Below are positions 21,767 through 30,719 of a stretch of DNA of 64,000 nucleotides, in pieces. Position numbers and translations under genes: made by a program. Each line of letters starts with the position of its first letter. Position 1 is the first letter of the stretch. The stretch is from assembly GCA_965214705.1 (NCBI GenBank), contig OZ243972.1, positions 256,001 through 320,000 of the forward strand. Direction: 5' to 3'. Source of the stretch: Alphaproteobacteria bacterium. GTDB lineage: Bacteria; Pseudomonadota; Alphaproteobacteria; UBA828. The notes below the pieces were generated by a model. The model ran no database searches. It saw only the letters and a list, made by a program, of their open reading frames with translations, and was not told the DNA's origin.

Positions 21767-21969
21767 CCGGAGCGGGCGGTCCGTTGGCGCGTGGCGAGGC
21801 CTCGGTTCTTTTCCCGATGCCGGCCGGGCGCGTACGTTTGCGCGCGGCCTTGGCACCGGCTTGCCGGCGTAGTATCCAGCCGCCCTCAGCCACACCATCG
21901 GAGGCTCAGGACATGGCGGTATCCCCTCCCCGCAAGGCCACCGCGCTCAAGAAGGCGATGACCAAGGTT

Positions 21970-22011
21970 AAGGGTTGGGCAGGCTCTCTCTCGAGAGCCT
22001 GCCCAACCCTT
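21970..22011. repeat. Perfect 19-bp stem hairpin at the end of the IS91-like element
   Basis: AAGGGTTGGGCAGGCTCTC-tctc-GAGAGCCTGCCCAACCCTT. Confidence 0.9.
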
Positions 22012-22273
22012 TTGAACGAAGCCGCGGGCCACGAGAGGCGAAGTTGAGCTATGTGGAAAGTGCGCTGATGTCAGCGTCAGGCGGCATCCACCGGCAGCAG
22101 AGTTGCGCATAAAATCGACGCTCGCGCCGGTCTTTCGGCAGGCATGCGGGCGCACGCTGCGAGGACTGAGCGGGGTGTGAGCCGAGGGCTGTCAGCCCGG
22201 CTCAAGCGGAGACAGGTTCGGTCGTGCGTCGGCGCTTTGGCGCCGTTGCGCGGGGCCGAAGCGAGCGGGCGTC

Positions 22274-23515
22274 TCACGGTTTCCCCCTGTGGGTCGGCGG
22301 CAGCGCCGGCGGGCCGCGCGTCGAGCGGGGCTCATGGCGGCGGCGGATTTCGCGGACGAGGCGCATGACGCCGCCGCAGTGGGGGCAGGCCACGGGCGCG
22401 GTGCCGATCTCGGGCTCTTCGTCGGGCTCGGCCCGAGCGCCGTCCACGCTTCCCTCGGGGGCGGCGCAGCCGAGGGCGCCGAGAGCCTGGCGTGCTCTCT
22501 CCAGCGTGCTGGCGCGGCAGCCGTTGGCGAGGATGCCGAAGTAGCGAATGCGGTGCATGCCGTCCGGCAGGACGTGCCTCAGGAAGCGGCGGATGAACTC
22601 GTCGGCGCTCACGGTGGCGATGCCGTAGCGCGGCTTTCTCTGCCCCGGCGCCTTGGGCTTTCGGTGGCGGAAGGAGACCGTCTCGCCGTCGAAGGAGACG
22701 ATGCGGCTGTCGGAGATGGCGATCCTGTGCGTGTAGTGCGAGAGGTACCGGAAGACCTGCTCAGGCCCGCGGAAGGGCCGCTTGGCGTAGACCACCCAGT
22801 CCCTGGCCCGGGCGGCGGCAAGCGTGGCGTGGAACTCGCCGGGATTGGCGAGGTGGGCGAGGGTGCCGTGGAACTCCAGGTCCCCCCGGCCGTGGGCGCG
22901 GGCGAGCTCCTCGAGGAAGAGGCGGCGGAACAGGCTGCCGAGGACCTTGACGGGGGCGAGGAAGGTGGTGCTCCCCGTCTTCCACTCGCCACTGTCTACG
23001 TCGAAGCCCGCGTTGGGCACGACCACGTGCAGGTGCGGGTGGAAGCGGAGCTTCTGATCCCAGGTATGGAGGACCGCGGTGCCGCCGATGCGCATGCCGC
23101 CGTGGCGGGGATCGGCGGCGATGGTGCGCAGGGTCTCGGCGACGGCCCGGAAGAGGATGTCGAACACCACCCTGCGGTTGCAGAAGGCAATGGCGGCAAC
23201 CTCCTTGGGCAGGGTGAAGACCACATGGAAGTAGGGCACCGGCAGGATGTCCCCGGCGCGCTCCTCGCTCCAGAGGTTGGCGGCGAGACCCTGGCAGGTG
23301 GGGCAGTGGCGGTTGCGGCAGGAGTTGAAGAGCGGATGCTCGCGCCCGCAGCCCTCGCAGGCGTACATGTGGCCGCCGAGCACGGCGGTGCGGCACGCCT
23401 CGATGGCGCCCATGACCTTGAGCCGGGCGGCGTCGATGCGCCCTTTGTGGCGCTCACGGAAAGCGGCGCCGGCGCGGCGGAAGATCTCCGCCACGCCCGC
23501 GCGTTCGGCCTCCAC
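22274..23515 (-). CDS. IS91-family (Y2 HUH) transposase with N-terminal Zn-binding domain
   Basis: 'CRT..LGGH..CEGCG...NSCRNRHCPTC', HUH 'HPHLH', Y2 motif 'YLSHY', 'HRIRYFG'. Confidence 0.9.
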   Translation of the reverse strand: MEAERAGVAEIFRRAGAAFRERHKGRIDAARLKVMGAIEACRTAVLGGHMYACEGCGREHPLFNSCRNRHCPTCQGLAANLWSEERAGDILPVPYFHVVFTLPKEVAAIAFCNRRVVFDILFRAVAETLRTIAADPRHGGMRIGGTAVLHTWDQKLRFHPHLHVVVPNAGFDVDSGEWKTGSTTFLAPVKVLGSLFRRLFLEELARAHGRGDLEFHGTLAHLANPGEFHATLAAARARDWVVYAKRPFRGPEQVFRYLSHYTHRIAISDSRIVSFDGETVSFRHRKPKAPGQRKPRYGIATVSADEFIRRFLRHVLPDGMHRIRYFGILANGCRASTLERARQALGALGCAAPEGSVDGARAEPDEEPEIGTAPVACPHCGGVMRLVREIRRRHEPRSTRGPPALPPTHRGKP

Positions 23516-23802
23516 GCGCCGTCAGTTGCGCAACGCTGCGAAGCCTGAGATCGGGTGGTCGAGGCCCTCGAACATCTTGCCGGTGACGCGGGCGTAGTGA
23601 CGGGTCGTGTTCGCGCTTCGATGGCCGAGCATGTCCCGGATCACCTCGATATCGCCGCCGCGCTCGAGGAGATGGGTCGCCGCCGAATGGCGCAGGCAAT
23701 GGAAGGTGTAGCGTAAGCGGTATCGGGCCCCCATACTTCCAGCGGATCTGATTTCGGGGCTGACTCTCCGCCTTGACCACGAGCCACACAGGAGAGATCG
23801 CG

Positions 23803-24228
23803 ATGACAGATTCGATTTTGGCATCTGGCGACGGTGTCGCTGTTGCTTCGGTTGAGATCCCAGCTTCTGAGGGAGCCGCCCCGGCTCCGTCTGAGCCGGC
23901 CCCCATGCGACGCTGGCCGGACGATGAGAAGGCGCGGATTGTCTCGGAGAGCTTTGAGCCGGGCTCTTCGGTTGCGGCGGTCGCGCGCCGCCATGGCGTC
24001 AGCGATACGACCCTGACCAAGTGGCGGCGGCGCGCGCGGGAGGGAACTCTTCCGGGCGCTCGGATTGGTGGCTCTGCACCGCCATTTGTTCCCGTGGTGG
24101 TTGATAGCGTGACGTCCGAGCGGACGGTGGCGATCGAGGCGCTAGGCGTGGTCGTTCGCCTTCCGGTGGAGAGCGCGGTCGATCGGATTGTTGCGGTGGC
24201 CTCGGGCCTGGGCCGGGCGTCGTCATGA
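23803..24228 (+). CDS. tnpA: IS66 TnpA (HTH)
   Basis: '[15 protein letters not shown]...[12 protein letters not shown]'. Confidence 0.85.
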
Positions 24229-24575
24229 TCGCGGCCCCCTCGCTTCGCATCGTGTTGGCGACGCGGCCGGTTGATTTTCGTCGCGGCCACGACGCGCTTG
24301 CGGCGACGGCGGCGGGGGAGCTGGACCTCGATATCTATTCCGGGGTGATCGTGATCTTCCGCTCGCGCCGCGGCGACAGGCTCAAGCTCCTTGCGTGGGA
24401 CGGCAGCGGTCTGGTGATGACCTACAAGCGTCTGGAGCAGGGCCGCTTCGCCTGGCCTCGGATCGAGGATGGTGTGATGCGCCTTACGAAGGGCCAGTTC
24501 GAGGCCCTCTTCGAGGGTCTGGACTGGCGCCGGGTGAAGGCCCGCCCGGTTCGCCGCCCGCTGGCGGCGGAGTGA
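24225..24575 (+). CDS. tnpB: IS66 accessory protein TnpB
   Basis: 'PVDFRRGHDAL', 'RLKLLAWDGSG..MTYKRLEQGRF'. Confidence 0.9.
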   Translation: MIAAPSLRIVLATRPVDFRRGHDALAATAAGELDLDIYSGVIVIFRSRRGDRLKLLAWDGSGLVMTYKRLEQGRFAWPRIEDGVMRLTKGQFEALFEGLDWRRVKARPVRRPLAAE

Positions 24576-24901
24576 GGCGGCACGCAGGCGGGGCCGCAGA
24601 TTTCGGTCGCGGTCCCGCCTGCACTTTTCCCTGGTCATGCATTGGCGAATCGGATTAAGGGGTGGCCCATGCCGAAGGTCACGCCCTCACCCCTCAGCAG
24701 CGCCGGTTCGCCGTCGCCTGCGGTGGTTTCGGCGGCGCTGGCGGCCCTGCATGCGGAGCTTGACGACGAGCGCGCGGCGCGCCGGGCGACGGAAGCAGCC
24801 CTATGCGAAGCGTAAGCGGTATCGAGGCCCCATACTTCCAACGCATCTGATTTCGCGGCTGACTCTTGGCCTTGGCAAGGAGCCTTGGAGGAGGCATCGC
24901 G

Positions 24902-25504
24902 ATGAAGGATTTGGATTTTCTGCGTGGCCACGAGTTCGGCGGTCACTCGGTCGAGGCGCGAGCGCCTGAAGAGGCCGCCCCATCTGCCGCAGCCCCATCT
25001 ACGGCAACTGTTCCGGCTGATCACACTCGGCGGTCATGGTCCGCCGAGGAGAAGGCACGGATCGTCGCGGAGAGCGACAGGCCGGGAGTTGTGCAGAAGG
25101 AGGTCGCGGCTCGCCACGGCATCAGCGCACAAACTCTTCGTCAGTGGCGCAGTCGGTCAGCGGCTTCCGGGAAGCGGCGTGGCCGGCCTTGGCCGGCTGA
25201 TGTGAAGGCGCGGATTGTTGCGGAGAGCGAGCGCCCGGATGCATCGATATCGGCAGTTGCCCGCCGTCACGGCATCAGCGAGAAGACGCTGCGCACCTGG
25301 CGTCGCCAGGCGGCGAGTGACGCTGGTGGCGATCGGCAGGGAGCCGGGTCTTCGCCCCCCTATATTCCGGTTGTAGTTGACGGGTCTGCGTCCGAGCGGA
25401 CGGTCGCGATTGAGGCGCTGGGCGTCGTCGTTCGCCTTCCGGTGGAGAGCGCGGTCGATCGGATCGTGGCTGTGGCCTCGGGCCTGGGTCGTGCGTCGTC
25501 ATGA
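24902..25504 (+). CDS. tnpA: IS66 TnpA with tandem HTH domains
   Basis: Two copies of 'W..(E/V)KARIVAES.RP......VA.RHGIS..TLR.WR'. Confidence 0.85.
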   Translation: MKDLDFLRGHEFGGHSVEARAPEEAAPSAAAPSTATVPADHTRRSWSAEEKARIVAESDRPGVVQKEVAARHGISAQTLRQWRSRSAASGKRRGRPWPADVKARIVAESERPDASISAVARRHGISEKTLRTWRRQAASDAGGDRQGAGSSPPYIPVVVDGSASERTVAIEALGVVVRLPVESAVDRIVAVASGLGRASS

Positions 25505-25851
25505 TCGCGGTGCCCTCGCTTCGCATCGTGTTGGCGACGCGTCCGGTTGATTTTCGTCGCGGCCACGACGCGCTTGCGGCGACGGCGGCGAGGGAGCTGG
25601 ACCTCGATATCTATTCCGGGGTGATCGTGATCTTCCGCTCGCGCCGCGGGGACAGGCTCAAGCTTCTCACCTGGGACGGGACCGGTCTGGTGATGACCTA
25701 CAAGCGTCTGGAGCAAGGCCGCTTCGCCTGGCCCCGGATCGAGGACGGTGTGATTCGCCTTACGAAGGGCCAGTTCGAGGCTCTCTTCGAGGGCCTCGAC
25801 TGGCGCCGGGTGAAGGCCCGCCCGGTTCGCCGCCCGCTGGCGGCGGAGTGA
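25501..25851 (+). CDS. tnpB: IS66 accessory protein TnpB
   Basis: Near-identical to 24225-24575. Confidence 0.9.
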   Translation: MIAVPSLRIVLATRPVDFRRGHDALAATAARELDLDIYSGVIVIFRSRRGDRLKLLTWDGTGLVMTYKRLEQGRFAWPRIEDGVIRLTKGQFEALFEGLDWRRVKARPVRRPLAAE

Positions 25852-25944
25852 GGCGAGACGCAGGCGGGTCCGCAGATTTTTGTCGAGGTCCCGCCTGCAC
25901 TTTTCCCTGGTCACGCATTGGCGAATCGGATTAAGGGATCGGCC

Positions 25945-27660
25945 ATGCCGAAGGTCACGCCCTCACCCCTCAGCAGCGCCGGTTCGCCGTCGCCTGCGGT
26001 GGTTTCGGCGGCGCTGGCGACCCTGCAGGCGGAGCTTGCCGAGGAGCGCGCGGCGCGCCGTGCGACCGAAGCAGCCCTATGCGAAGCGGAGCAGGCACGC
26101 GGCGCGGCGGAGGCGGCGAGGCAGACGGCGGAAGCGCGGGCGGCACGGCTGGAGGCCGAGAACGCGCACAGCGCGGAGCAGATCAGCCGGCTTGAGCATC
26201 TCAACAAGGAGCTCAGGAAGGCGCTGTTCGGTCCGCGCTCCGAGAAGCTCAACGAGGACGAGCGCCAGCTTACGTTCGAGGAGTTTTGGGCGGCGATCGC
26301 TGAAGCCGGCGGTCGGCCCGAGGCAGATGACCAGGAGCAGGACGAGGGGGCTGGCGGCAAGCGCCGGCGGCGCTCTTCCCGGGGGTCGCGCAGCGGGGTG
26401 CGCTTCGGGCCCCAGGTCGACCGGCGCGAGGAGGTGATCGAGCCGGACACGATCATGTGCCCCTGCGGCTGCGGCGAGATGACGAAGATCGGCGAGGACC
26501 GCAGCGAGCGGCTGGACTATGAGCCGGCGAAGTTCACCGTCATCGAGACCGTGCGCCCCCGCTACGCCTGCAACAAGTGCAAGGGCGGCGGGGTGGTGCA
26601 GGCGTCGGCGCCCGCCTCTCTGGTGGAGGGCGGCCTTCCCACCGAGGCTCTTCTGGCGCAGGTGCTGATCGCGAAGTACGGCGATCATTGCCCGCTCTAC
26701 CGTCAGTCGCAGATTTACGAGCGCTCGGGGATCGAGGTTCACCGTGCGACGCTGGCGACGTGGGTGGGGCAGGCGTCGTTTCACCTGCGCCCCGTGGTCG
26801 CTTGCCTGAAGGATGAGCTGAAGAAGTCGGATCACCTGGGTCTGGACGAGACCACGATCCGCGTTCTCGACCCGGGCCGGGGCAAGACGAAGACGGGCTA
26901 CATGTGGACCCTTGTGCGCGACGAGCGCCACTGGAGCGGCGCCGACCCGCCGGGCGTTGTCTATCGCTATGAGCCCGGTCGCGGCGGCAAGTATGGCGCC
27001 AGGCTCTTGAAGGGCTTTTCGGGGACGGTGCAGCTCGACGCCTACTCGGGCCACAACATCCTGGCGCGGCCGGACCGGCCCGGCGGCCCCGTGACGCGGG
27101 CTCTGTGCTGGGCGCACGTCAGGCGCAAGCTGAAAGAGGTGTACGACTCGAGCGCCTCGCCGATCGCGCTGGCTGGCCTGAAGCGGATCGCGACGCTCTA
27201 TGCGATCGAGGAGAAGATCCGGGGCGAGCCGCCGGCGACGCGTCAGGCGATCCGCTGGGAGGAGTCGGCGCCGATCGTGAACGCCTTCGGTGTCTGGCTC
27301 GACGAACAGCGCTCGCGGGTCTCACCGCGCTCGCGTCTCGGCGAGAAGCTCACCTATATCGCCAACCAGTGGGACGGGCTGCTGGAGTTCCTGCACGACG
27401 GCCGCGTCGAGATCGACTCGAACCTGGTGGAAAACCGAATCCGCCCGCTGAAGCTCACCGCCAAGAATGCGCTCTTCGCCGGCAACGACGAGGGTGCGCA
27501 AGCCTGGGCCCGCATCGCATCGCTGATCGAGACCTGCAAGATGAACGGCGTCGAGCCTTACGCCTGGATGCGGAGCACGCTCGAGAAGATCGCCAAGGGT
27601 CACCCGCAGTCCAAAATCCAGGAACTGCTGCCGTGGAACTTCGAGCCCGAGACAAATTGA
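25945..27660 (+). CDS. tnpC: IS66 DDE transposase TnpC
   Basis: Coiled coil 'LFGPRSEK', Zn finger 'CPCGCG...YACNKC', 'LDETT', 'CWAHVRRK', 'DSNLVENRIRP', 'LLPW'. Confidence 0.92.
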   Translation: MPKVTPSPLSSAGSPSPAVVSAALATLQAELAEERAARRATEAALCEAEQARGAAEAARQTAEARAARLEAENAHSAEQISRLEHLNKELRKALFGPRSEKLNEDERQLTFEEFWAAIAEAGGRPEADDQEQDEGAGGKRRRRSSRGSRSGVRFGPQVDRREEVIEPDTIMCPCGCGEMTKIGEDRSERLDYEPAKFTVIETVRPRYACNKCKGGGVVQASAPASLVEGGLPTEALLAQVLIAKYGDHCPLYRQSQIYERSGIEVHRATLATWVGQASFHLRPVVACLKDELKKSDHLGLDETTIRVLDPGRGKTKTGYMWTLVRDERHWSGADPPGVVYRYEPGRGGKYGARLLKGFSGTVQLDAYSGHNILARPDRPGGPVTRALCWAHVRRKLKEVYDSSASPIALAGLKRIATLYAIEEKIRGEPPATRQAIRWEESAPIVNAFGVWLDEQRSRVSPRSRLGEKLTYIANQWDGLLEFLHDGRVEIDSNLVENRIRPLKLTAKNALFAGNDEGAQAWARIASLIETCKMNGVEPYAWMRSTLEKIAKGHPQSKIQELLPWNFEPETN

Positions 27661-30600
27661 CTCGCGCGCTCACGGCGCTCCTCAACAAGTCCCCCTCGTA
27701 GTCAACCCAGATTCCGGCATGGGGTCTGCGTAACGCTTACTGCGAAGCGGAGCAGGCACGCGGCGCGGCGGAGGCGGCGAGGCAGACGGCGGAAGCGCGG
27801 GCGGCACGGCTGGAGGCCGAGAACGCGCAGAGCGCGGAGCAGATCAGCCGGCTTGAGCATCTCAACAAGGAGCTCAGGAAGGCGCTGTTCGGTCCGCGCT
27901 CCGAGAAGCTCGGCGAGGACGAGCGCCAGCTTACGTTCGAGGAGTTTTGGGCGGCGATCGCTGAAGCCGGCGGTCGGCCCGAGGCAGATGACCAGGAGCA
28001 GGACGAGGGGGCTGGCGGCAAGCGCCGGCGGCGCTCTTCCCGGGGGTCGCGCAGCGGGGTGCGCTTCGGGCCCCAGGTCGACCGGCGCGAGGAGGTGATC
28101 GAGCCGGACACGATCATGTGCCCCTGCGGCTGCGGCGAGATGACGAAGATCGGCGAGGACCGCAGCGAGCGGCTGGACTATGAGCCGGCGAAGTTCACCG
28201 TCATCGAGACCGTGCGCCCCCGCTACGCCTGCAACAAGTGCAAGGGGGGCGGGGTGGTGCAGTCGCCGGCGCCGGCCGCTCTGGTCGAGGGCGGCCTTCC
28301 CACCGAGGCTCTTCTGGCGCAGGTGCTGATCGCGAAGTACGGCGATCATTGCCCGCTCTATCGCCAGTCGCAGATCTACGAGCGCTCGGGGATCGAGGTT
28401 CACCGTGCGACGCTGGCGACGTGGGTGGGCCAGGCGTCGTTTCACCTGCGCCCCGTGGTCGCTTGCCTGGAGGATGAGCTGAAGAAGTCGGATCACCTGG
28501 GTCTGGACGAGACCACGATCCGCGTTCTCGACCCGGGCCGGGGCAAGACGAAGACGGGCTACATGTGGACCCTTGTGCGTGACGAGCGCCACTGGAGCGG
28601 CACGGACCCGCCGGGCGTCGTCTATCGCTATGCGCCCGGCCGCGGCGGCAAGTATGGCGCCGAGCTTATGGAGGGCTTTTCGGGGACGGTGCAGCTCGAC
28701 GGCTACTCGGGCCACAACATCCTGGCGCGGCCGGACCGGGCGGAAGGCCCTGTGACGCGGGCCCTCTGTTGGGCGCATGTAAGACGGAAGCTGAAAGAGG
28801 TATACGACTCGAGCGCATCGCCGATCGCGCTGGCCGGTCTGAATCGGATCGCGAAGCTCTATGCGATCGAGAAGAAGATCCGGGGCAAGCCGCCGGCGGA
28901 GCGCCGCGCGATCCGTTGGGAGGAGTCGGCGCCGATCGTGAACACCTTCGGTGTCTGGCTCGACGAGCAGCGCTCGCGCGTCTCACCGCGCTCGCGTCTC
29001 GGCGAGAAGCTGACCTATATCGCCAACCAGTGGGACGGGCTGCTGGAGTTCCTGCACGACGGTCGTGTCGAGATCGACTCGAACCTGGTGGAAAACCGAA
29101 TCCGGCCGCTGAAGCTCACCGCCAAGAACGCGCTCTTCGCCGGCAACGACGAGGGTGCGCAAGCCTGGGCCCGCATCGCCTCGCTGATCGAGACCTGCAA
29201 GATGAACGGCGTCGAGCCCTACGCCTGGATGCGGAGCACGCTCGAGAAGATCGCCAAGGGCCACCCGCAGTCGGGCATCCAGGAGCTTCTGCCGTGGAAC
29301 TTCCAGCCCGAGGCAAAATGACTCGCGCGCTCACGGCGCTCCTCAAGAAATCCCCGTCGTAGTCAAGCCAGATTCCGGTATGGGGTCTGCGTACCGCTTA
29401 CGGTGTAGCTGCGGTCGAGCTCGGCAATGTCGCGCGCCCTCCTGAAGGCGGCCTGCAAGGTCTCCGTTGCGATGGGCCTGTCGAGCGAGACGCCGTAGAA
29501 GAGCCAGCTCGTCGGACGCGGCCAGATGTTCCTGTAGTAGACGCGCAAGTAGTGGATGACGATGTCCGGCAACGGTGCCATTCTCTCGGTGCCGCCTTTG
29601 CCGGAGGGGATGTGCAGCAGCTTCTTCTCCGACAGGATGTCGCCGACCTTGATGGCCAAGGTCTCGGAGATGCGGAGCCCGCCGCCATAGCCGGTGACAA
29701 TGGCAGCACGGTGGCGGAGGTCGGGTGTCGCAAGGATGAGGTGCTCGACCTCCTGCTCCGACATGTAGCGCGGCAGCTTGCCGGGCTTCTTGCGGGAGCG
29801 CAGGCCGGCGACATGGTCAGGCCAGCCGAGTGTGTCGATGTAGAGGAAGTTCAGCGCGGCGAAGGAGACGTTGGTCGTGCCCGGACTGAGCCCCTTGTCG
29901 ATCCGCCCCAGGTACCACTGGCGCACCTGCTCGGCGTCGAGCTCGTCCGGCGAGGCGTCGTAGTACCTGGCCAGGTTCTTGATCTCGCAGATGTAGGCCT
30001 TGGACGTGCTCGCGGCCAGATTGGCGATGCGGAGCTGCTCCTCCATGCGCTGGCGAAGAGGGGTGACGGTGTTCGTGTCGCACGCGGTCCCGGTCATTAT
30101 CGATCTCCCTGGATCGCGACGGCGCGCCGCCGGACCGATCCGGCGACGGTCCGTCGCAGGGGTCGATACTAACCACTGGTGATCGGGAGGCTGCTGGGGA
30201 TCCGCCACCCGACGGGCGGAGCGCCACTGACGCAACCGGGAAGCGAACGCACAGAACAAACGGCACCCGCGACGCCTCGGAAATGAATGAACTCTACGCC
30301 GCTAACTCCGCGTAGCGGCTTCGTTCAAGACGCAATTGGTGGCTTCGCTTTCCGAATCGACGGGGCTTCCGAAGAGGGACGTCTCGGCGGTGCTCGACGA
30401 GTTGGGGCTTCTCATCGAGCGCCACATCAAGAAACGCGCCGTCGGCACCTTCACGCTTCCCGGCCTGTTGAGGATCACACGTGCGCGCAAGTCCGCCAGG
30501 AAGGCGCGGACGATGGTCTCGCCGCGCACGGGGGAGGAGATCCAGGTGCCCGCCAAGCCGGCCTCGACCGCGGTCAAGGTACGGCCGCTCGCGGGCCTCA

Positions 30601-30719
30601 AGCGGATGGTCGAATAGGGCGCTCCTCTCCACCGGGCCCGAACGGCGCCCGCATTGGGGGCGCGCTCTCCCTTGCGATAGATGCGATGCCGGCCGCCGTC
30701 GGCGCCGGTACTGCCGGGC

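Follow-up and report, generated by a model that had tools for sequence, protein, structure and literature searches.

An IS91-family transposon with a tyrosine recombinase gene and repeat-plus-hairpin ends, inserted in an HU-family gene of an alphaproteobacterial genome

The window analysed here is a 64,000-nt stretch from an alphaproteobacterium of the UBA828 lineage (assembly GCA_965214705.1, contig OZ243972.1, forward-strand positions 256,001 to 320,000), and positions are counted from its first letter. At 21966-30328 it holds an 8363-bp insert, a minus-strand element lying inside an HU-family gene. The element is a member of the IS91 family, of the known subgroup that carries a tyrosine recombinase gene, and agrees with that family in every trait that could be compared. 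Its ends are unlike: a 14-nt repeat is terminal at the 5′ end, and at the 3′ side its inverted copy adjoins a long hairpin, after which comes a short tail. Relatives whose transposases range from 79% down to 36-40% identity have kept this end module, and its paired positions covary. We think it likely that the window copy entered an HU paralogue, was later broken in its recombinase gene by two IS66 elements, and belongs to a family that moves by a rolling-circle cycle in which the two ends may pair with each other.

The limits were fixed by comparison among genomic copies, and on the plus strand they read GGTTAAGG...GTTCAA. A preliminary description, made from the letters of the window, had delimited the element to 21967-30329; that it is one unit stood, while the limits shift one base to the left, both choices giving the identical joined sequence for the window copy. 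CAAG lies at both junctions as that description had reported (21963-21966 and 30326-30329). The G that completes the left CAAG is assigned to the element because it is invariant in 79/79 distinct flank pairs and because of the first empty-site case; the base that follows GTTCAA is G in 42, A in 23, T in 12 and C in 2 of the same 79. An intact HU paralogue at G000:C1:879169-878695 is 98.2% and 99.4% identical to the two gene halves. Its open reading frame (ORF) runs uninterrupted across the site (...KKAMTKTQLVASL...), so the AMTK|TQLV frame that removal of the insert had been said to restore is seen there as the empty site. The N-terminal 18 residues (MAVSPPRKATALKKAMTK) and the C-terminal 95 residues (TQLVASL...RMVE, matched by Pfam Bac_DNA_binding) are contiguous in this paralogue, and therefore the whole 8363 bp entered as one unit. 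Beyond the 98-99% copy, further paralogues of the interrupted gene (window 21800-21966 and 30330-30640), 76-87% identical, are found at at least eight places on contigs C1 and C3. A loose end in public run X1 that reads as an empty HU site was set aside as uninformative on relatives, since it may be just the intact paralogue.

The genome searched is a 7.92-Mb assembly in three contigs (C1, C2 and C3), in which the element has recently expanded to about 90 near-identical copies. Exact anchors found 94 5′ ends and 92 3′ ends, forming 80 pairs within 9 kb; 54 of these span exactly 2666 bp, four more deviate from this by at most 3 bp, and other insertions account for the rest. No two ends of the 80 pairs lie closer than 2663 bp. 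Anchors that ignore the hairpin loop gave 86 paired copies. On the sense strand the element reads TTGAAC...CCCTTAACC, its final C invariant in 79/79 distinct flank pairs, its initial TT present in 77/79 and the whole TTGAAC likewise in 77/79. There are 55 sites that vary in at least two of the 80 copies, in reticulate haplotypes that suggest gene conversion between copies; six or seven copies form a subfamily about 2% diverged, and one 2867-bp copy has an internal duplication of about 200 bp.

For 16 of the 80 copies an empty site flanked by the identical sequences occurs in this genome, in most cases because the element had landed in some other repeat. Thirteen of these sites match exactly; of the remaining three, two carry additional bases (TT at the 3′ end in one, a single T in the other) and the third has TC changed to TT. 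No target duplication was seen in the 16 empty sites, nor any repeat in the flanks of 79 copies. The first three bases of the 3′ flank are T in 58, T in 68 and G in 35 of 79, and the base preceding the element is C in 42, T in 23, A in 12 and G in 2. Insertion thus falls 5′ of TT(G) on the sense strand, which is CAA|G on the other strand, hence the CAAG at both junctions; the 3′ flank therefore repeats the first bases of the element's own 5′ end. For one copy whose 3′ flank is CTT, paralogous empty sites read ...GCGTCT|CTTCCC, and therefore the invariant C belongs to the element. A 2-bp TT duplication, or an element shifted by one or two bases, was considered and is disfavoured by the 3′ flanks that are not TT and by the first empty-site case.

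Alignment of the window copy to an intact copy matches reference positions 1-1747 to 21966-23712 and 1740-2666 to 29402-30328, eight bases being shared; the length without IS66, earlier put at about 2.7 kb, is 2666 bp. Intact copies encode the recombinase at element nt 70-1110 (346 aa, TTG start) and the transposase at nt 1117-2358. IS66-A entered at element nt 920-927, inside the recombinase gene. As read in the window, the recombinase ORF (29363-30259) gives 298 aa, ends early and is without the catalytic H-x-x-R, H and Y. Contigs from public runs of four studies join 23704 to 29402 in 4/4 runs and 24803 to 27741 in 3/4, and therefore both the IS66-free element and an IS66-A free of IS66-B exist in related strains. 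In two of the four runs contig depth over the element is many times that of the flank.

The order of a tyrosine recombinase followed by a zinc-finger Y2 HUH transposase, already recognised as IS91-like in the preliminary description, is borne out by profile searches. The 413-aa transposase matches Pfam Y2_Tnp (2.7e-54) and Zn_Tnp_IS91 (4.3e-30) and no other Pfam family, and that of the intact copy scores 382.5 bits against the NCBIfam equivalog transpos_IS91 (cut-off 125). A search by sequence for solved relatives of the transposase found none. The best NCBIfam models for the recombinase are XerA, XerC, the integron integrase (in two stretches) and XerD, all below their cut-offs, and its nearest solved chains are an XerC-like protein, XerD and IntI4.

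The two 14-nt repeat copies of the window element are a perfect inverted match, and these, together with the 19-bp-stem and 7-bp-stem hairpins, lie where the preliminary description had placed them. Folded as DNA, the long hairpin reaches -27.3 kcal/mol (z = -7.4), none of 200 shuffles being as good; the 7-bp hairpin is marginal taken alone (z = -2.5 to -2.8, 1-2/200 shuffles as good). The tail after the long hairpin is conserved in relatives as CCCTTCACA, CCCTCAACA or CTCTAAAC. We considered the long hairpin as a transcription terminator and rejected this, as neither here nor in relatives is it followed by a run of T on the sense strand. The features of the window copy are collected in Table 1.

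Table 1. Features of the interrupted HU-family gene, the IS91-family element within it and the nested IS66 elements (window positions).
Feature	Position	Strand	Details
HU-family gene, 5′ part	21913..21965	+	Comparison with paralogue ORF
Whole IS91-family element	21966..30328	-	8363 bp: 2666 bp of its own, IS66-A with nested IS66-B, and one 8-bp duplication
3′ tail, sense AACC	21966..21969	-	Invariant in 79/79; presumed ori nick at its outer edge
Long 3′ hairpin	21970..22011 (arms 21970-21988 / 21993-22011)	-	Perfect 19-bp stem, 4-nt loop; DNA fold and relatives
3′ subterminal copy of 14-nt inverted repeat	22012..22025	-	Sense GCGGCTTCGTTCAA; window letters TTGAACGAAGCCGC
Y2 HUH transposase gene	22274..23515	-	413 aa, intact, N-terminal zinc-binding domain; Pfam, NCBIfam
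Tyrosine recombinase gene, C-terminal part	23522..23712	-	Split off by IS66-A
IS66-A	23713..29401	+	2751 bp of its own; duplication GGTGTAGC at 23705-23712 and 29402-29409
IS66-B, nested in IS66-A	24811..27740	+	2930 bp; duplication TGCGAAGC at 24803-24810 and 27741-27748
Tyrosine recombinase gene, N-terminal part	29402..30259	-	Pfam Phage_integrase, Phage_int_SAM_4
Short 5′ hairpin	30298..30319 (arms 30298-30304 / 30313-30319)	-	7-bp stem; ter side; outer arm nested in terminal repeat
5′ terminal copy of 14-nt inverted repeat	30315..30328	-	Sense TTGAACGAAGCCGC; window letters GCGGCTTCGTTCAA
HU-family gene, 3′ part	30329..30617	+	Paralogue ORF, Pfam

Three further families of the same kind, B, C and E, are present in this genome, with transposases 81%, 80% and 40% identical to that of the window element and ends fixed by copy-to-copy comparison; E has about 11 copies. 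Their 5′ ends read TTGAAC(G/T)(A/G)AGCCGC with a short hairpin, and on the 3′ side each has the inverted repeat copy, with a long hairpin immediately after it and then a short tail. In family C the hairpin stem bases have changed in pairs. Family E has an unrelated 13-bp hairpin stem, and its repeat is TGAGCCGC / GCGGCTCA instead of GAAGCCGC / GCGGCTTC. Copies of family E (e.g. locus L003, G000:C1:1594000-1598000) tend to adjoin a repeated palindrome, ATGTTGAGCTCAACAT.

A scan of one genome per species added 80 loci with transposases of 47-79% identity, mostly from Alpha-, Beta- and Gammaproteobacteria, with single bins labelled Actinomycetota and Acidobacteriaceae. The recombinase gene lies directly upstream of the transposase gene in 73/80; three of the other seven loci are cut by contig ends, two have recombinase remnants, one is rearranged and one has no recombinase within 3 kb. 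A locus was scored as having a motif pair when a fixed 12-nt motif preceded the recombinase gene and its complement followed the transposase gene, with at most two mismatches allowed between the repeat copies. Such pairs occur in 48/80 loci (39/53 when each side is required to offer 400 nt or more), against 2/80 for equal-sized control windows inside the genes. A hairpin starts within 14 nt of the 3′ repeat in 48/48 of these loci. Its score is at least 8 in 30/48 (18/240 control windows) and at least 10 in 21/48 (3/240), the stems being unrelated in sequence between groups of relatives. The fixed motif misses diverged ends; a free inverted-repeat search recovered the layout in five more loci (L007, L010, L024, L067 and L083), some of which had shorter windows, and returned mostly chance matches elsewhere. 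An element on a Myroides plasmid (Bacteroidota), whose transposase is 36% identical and has an annotated recombinase upstream, shows the same layout, with TTGAACTAAACC at the 5′ side and GGTTCCGTTCAA at the 3′ side, then a hairpin and a tail.

Catalytic residues are retained in both enzymes. H159, H161, H163, Y257 and Y261 are invariant across four transposase families. R196, K221, H288, R291, H314 and Y323 are kept in 69/69 recombinases, namely those of families A, B, C and E and of 65 of the 73 loci, eight having been dropped for a match below 230 residues or an in-frame stop. The recombinase is therefore under selection as a catalyst, and from these residues and its nearest models it is a predicted catalytically competent accessory enzyme, similar to Xer and integron integrases. 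It may, as the preliminary description had suggested, resolve circles or multimers.

Variable positions of the end module change in pairs, as the preliminary description had proposed to check on homologous gene pairs. Among the 48 motif-pair loci, repeat position 2 is A:T in 20, G:C in 19 and C:G in 8, and position 8 is C:G in 20, A:T in 16 and G:C in 11, each position being paired in 47/48. The 5′ hairpin, in 38 aligned ends, has the stem NCCGC/GCGGN′, where N:N′ is C:G in 15, A:T in 13, G:C in 8 and broken in 2. With covariation at both sites, the variable base of the 5′ hairpin matches its local partner and the distant 3′ repeat alike. The long hairpin shows compensatory changes in at least 6 of 13 predicted pairs among seven close relatives, a lower bound since the alignment of the seven 3′ ends mis-registers L007 and L008.

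Polarity was assigned by comparison: the 5′ end is homologous to the ter end of an IS1294-like element and agrees with published IS91-family ends, so it is read as ter and the hairpin end as ori, the long hairpin itself being the probable ori side by homology with IS1294 and IS91. By the logic of IS91 the transposase would nick the antisense strand at the hairpin end, between CAA and GGTTAA; replication would displace the nicked strand, a second transposase cut would follow after GTTCAA at the 5′ end, and a single-stranded circle would be closed and inserted next to a target AA. We propose that the 3′-terminal 14 nt of the displaced strand would pair with the repeat copy that adjoins the base of the ori hairpin, placing the cut sites side by side, with the nick site or joint in a 4-nt bulge (GGTT/AACC) of a three-way fold. 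Local pairing of the ter bases in the ter hairpin would be the alternative, and the two folds could then act as a switch. The TTG that opens the repeat could also pair, by two or three bases, with the AA or CAA of the target, recalling the guide bases of IS608.

Several points weigh against this reading. Repeat positions 4 and 5 are unpaired in 24/48 and 14/48 loci, with conserved C.C and T.C mismatches, and therefore the repeat copies are not simply kept complementary. Covariation of an inverted repeat is equally expected from one protein that binds both ends in opposite orientation. The motif pairs were chosen for best complementarity, which favours paired columns; 27/80 loci have less than 400 nt in one or both search windows, and the fixed motif gave no pair in 14 of the 53 loci with enough sequence on both sides. 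Many relatives of about 50% identity carry a conserved TGGGCCAAT-like stretch upstream of the repeat, which would therefore be subterminal in them. The moving strand is assigned from IS91 by homology. The antisense strand lies in the presumed lagging-strand template in 32/46 copies on C1, 13/30 on C3 and 11/18 on C2, so that the bias of C1 (32 vs 14) is not repeated on C3 (13 vs 17) or C2 (11 vs 7), and the skew curves behind these assignments are weak. The public-run data are assembled contigs, which cannot show circles.

The alternative that survives best takes the 14-nt repeats as double-strand sites of one protein, either the zinc domain of the transposase or the recombinase, which are oppositely oriented and never pair, the hairpins being the sole single-strand signals. 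We hold this to be possible but somewhat doubtful. The mismatches at positions 4 and 5 speak for it, as does the high conservation of the repeat itself, GAAC.AA.CCGC in the 48 loci with several invariant columns, which is more typical of protein recognition; the N-terminal zinc domain, with a putative DNA-binding role, is conserved too, and in families B and C TTCGTTCA recurs as a third, local copy some 35 nt in from the 5′ end. HUH transposases, however, act on one strand, and there the repeat copies are complementary, not identical. The 3′ repeat, moreover, always abuts the hairpin foot (within 14 nt in 48/48), a geometry that a coaxial fold requires and a binding site does not, and three pair types are maintained at positions 2 and 8.

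Another explanation gives insertion or circle closure to the recombinase, the HUH enzyme only peeling the strand, so that the folded junction, made of the repeat stem and the hairpin, would be a single-stranded recombination site comparable to the attC used by integron integrases or the folded CTX phage site used by XerCD, exchanged with the target next to TT. Integron core sites read RYYYAAC / G|TTRRRY, with exchange after G. On these patterns the cut after GTTCAA fits the inverse core RYYYAA of attC, TTGAAC fits TTRRRY, and insertion before TT resembles that of cassettes at G|TT. In favour, Xer and integron integrases are the closest to this recombinase, none of its catalytic residues is lost in the 69 sequences, and close relatives retain it (73/80, with remnants in two of the other seven). 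A preprint likewise places IS91-borne recombinases in an 'integron-like' subgroup next to the integron integrases. Integrons have G before the insertion point, whereas here that base is G in only 2/79, and RYYYAA matches by chance about once per 256 positions. No conserved pair of recombinase arms with a 6-8 bp spacer was seen, and the 5′ hairpin loop ranges from 3 to 8 nt in length. IS91, IS801 and IS1294, which are without a recombinase, share the ter site type (GTTC) and short-word targeting. We judge this explanation unlikely.

We give equally little weight to a combined version, in which the repeat-plus-hairpin module would be a folded single-stranded site shared by both enzymes. The HUH transposase would make the single-stranded circle, and the recombinase would insert next to TT, flip or resolve the junction formed by the 14-bp stem, the 4-nt bulge and the hairpin, much as IntI acts on attC and XerCD on the genome of the CTX phage. 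If it were true, the IS91 subgroup would be a natural hybrid of rolling-circle and folded-site tyrosine recombination, and this would explain why a Helentron-like layout has arisen twice. Finally, that the terminal 45 bp and 40 bp come from another small element or repeated palindrome that received the gene pair, one of the possibilities that the preliminary description had named as refuting it, is already refuted and has next to no chance of being right: no support was found beyond the palindrome beside family E, which shows that such sequences exist in the genome, whereas the ends never occur without the genes at a spacing below 2663 bp (80 pairs), 13/16 empty sites are exact for the whole unit, and in families B, C and E, as in the 48 other loci, the divergence of the ends keeps pace with that of the genes.

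The element was set against known systems. It has the IS91-family traits of a Y2 HUH transposase with a zinc domain, no target duplication, a short target word, unlike ends with subterminal palindromes, one of them next to the ter cleavage site, and a target word beside the ori end that resembles the ter cleavage site. In IS801 and IS1294, too, the target word resembles the ter cleavage site, according to a preprint (bioRxiv 10.1101/2025.01.24.634351). With the recombinase-carrying subgroup it shares the gene pair and its order, the recombinase gene lying directly upstream, co-oriented and within the element, with no difference seen in the defining traits compared. ISfinder records this subgroup, for example as ISWz1, which is located in tet(X) resistance islands; the paper on that element gives its family, IS91, only. 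In the papers searched we found no end structure, target or mechanism described for the subgroup, although ISfinder, TnPedia or supplements may contain one.

That preprint names only four IS91-family elements shown to transpose (IS91, IS801, IS1294 and IS1294b), describes none of them with a recombinase, and reports for IS91 that only single-stranded circles were inserted (bioRxiv 10.1101/2025.01.24.634351). These classical elements share with the present one the zinc-finger Y2 HUH transposase, the absence of target duplication, the short target word and the unlike ends. They also have one or more palindromes near the 3′ (ori) end and a 3′ flank that repeats the beginning of the 5′ end. The family is further characterised by rolling-circle movement through a single-stranded circle, for which the ori end is indispensable and the ter end is not. 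The ter end of the IS1294-like element, ATGAAC-CACG-GCAGCC..GGCTGC, compares with TTGAAC-GAA-GCCGCTA..TAGCGGC here, both consisting of GAAC, a few nt and a short GC hairpin. Transposases of the classical elements are only 23-28% identical to this one, and a recombinase is absent from them, IS91 having a small orf121 instead. In the two classical elements examined, IS91 and the IS1294-like element, the start of the 5′ end is not mirrored beside the 3′ hairpin; the best inverted end match is 8 nt in IS91 and 10 nt in the IS1294-like element (AAATTGAAAA), differently placed.

Targeting differs in orientation. The preliminary description had taken CAAG as the IS91 target; the word is the same, yet IS91 has CAAG or GAAC on the gene-sense strand after its ori end, whereas here the sense strand reads ...TTAACC|TTG; the rule they have in common is a recurrence, in the 3′ flank, of the bases that start the 5′ end. 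The target word is thus TT(G) on the sense strand here, against CAAG/GAAC in IS91 and GAAC/GGAC in the IS1294-like element. On the sense strand IS91 (two plasmid copies sharing 1833 bp) ends ...CCTATCGAT followed by GAAC or CAAG, and the IS1294-like element, with the 5′ end ATGAAC, ends ...CCTATACGT followed by GAAC or GGAC.

The ends had also been likened to those of Helentrons, and the likeness stands in geometry. In published descriptions the subterminal inverted repeats of Helentrons are 12-15 bp long, with 2-4 nt separating them from the 5′ end and 38-60 nt from the 3′ end; here the distances are 0 nt and 47 nt. Helentron/Helitron2 elements share, on the same descriptions, the asymmetric subterminal inverted repeats, the palindrome between the 3′ repeat and the 3′ end, the short 5′ inverted repeat that has its outer arm inside the 5′ repeat, and insertion next to T. 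Their Rep is fused to a Pif1-like helicase (plus, in Helentrons, an endonuclease), whereas the 413-aa protein here has neither a helicase nor an endonuclease domain. The base 5′ of the insertion point is here C more than T (42 vs 23 of 79), unlike in Helentrons. The 3′ hairpin of Helraiser, a reconstructed Helitron, is reported to terminate transposition, whereas the hairpin end here is ori by homology, so that the polarity is probably opposite. Published work assigns separate origins to the Rep domains of Helitrons and of IS91. We take the likeness for convergence and not for membership.

IS200/IS605 elements (IS608, ISDra2) have subterminal hairpins and a single-stranded circle, their cleavage sites being chosen by pairing at the hairpin foot. 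By analogy they may serve as a model in which the 3′ repeat acts as a 'guide' to the ter end and the target AA. They differ in having a Y1 transposase of another family, in moving by peel-and-paste and not by rolling circle, and in being without a 14-nt end-to-end repeat.

IS91-recombinase pairs occur in at least 15 phyla (245 IS91-XerD couples in a survey), yet none of the four proven movers is described with a recombinase in the preprint that names them. In the present genome a member of this group has been active recently and on a massive scale; its ends are exact, its target is defined, and 16 empty sites and three sister families are available for comparison. Its end module bears on two questions, how the ends of a rolling-circle transposon meet and what the second enzyme does, and the Helentron-like geometry suggests a general solution for helicase-less and helicase-bearing rolling-circle transposons.

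The 4-nt loop of the 3′ hairpin is GAGA in 80 of the 86 paired copies and TCTC, the inverted or 'flop' form, in six, which are found on C1, C2 and C3 and spread over at least three haplotypes. A single head-to-tail tandem was observed (G000:C2:646530-646700, locus L093), whose junction reads repeat-GGTT-hairpin(loop inverted)-AACC-repeat and is a perfect palindrome with 37-nt arms, 4 nt beyond what was expected, GGTT having been added opposite AACC. Loop inversion and this junction fit fold-back or cruciform events at the palindrome; template switching, which could occur at any perfect palindrome, is an alternative source of both, and a head-to-tail tandem can also arise by insertion at the preferred TTG.

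Other elements have inserted into copies elsewhere in the genome. A 1649-bp IS110-family element (Pfam Transposase_20 and DEDD_Tnp_IS110; e.g. G000:C1:1661344-1662992, locus L089) sits at element nt 1306 in 15/80 copies and is absent from the window copy. Its insertion point is in the zinc-finger coding part of the transposase gene (HPLFN|SCRNRHCP), and two similar words elsewhere, like the homologous word in the sister families, also carry it. This IS appears to have the transposase gene of another IS as its target, and the shared position is put down to repeated site-specific insertion. Transposition of the composite as a unit is unproven, the carriers belonging to several haplotypes and the insert also occurring outside the element. 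Another IS, 2090 bp long, encodes a DDE_Tnp_1 transposase and has the ends CCGAACTTCC... (e.g. G000:C1:3171632-3173722, locus L090); it has inserted eight times in the CTTAAC of the element's 3′ tail, in both orientations and with CTTAAC duplicated.

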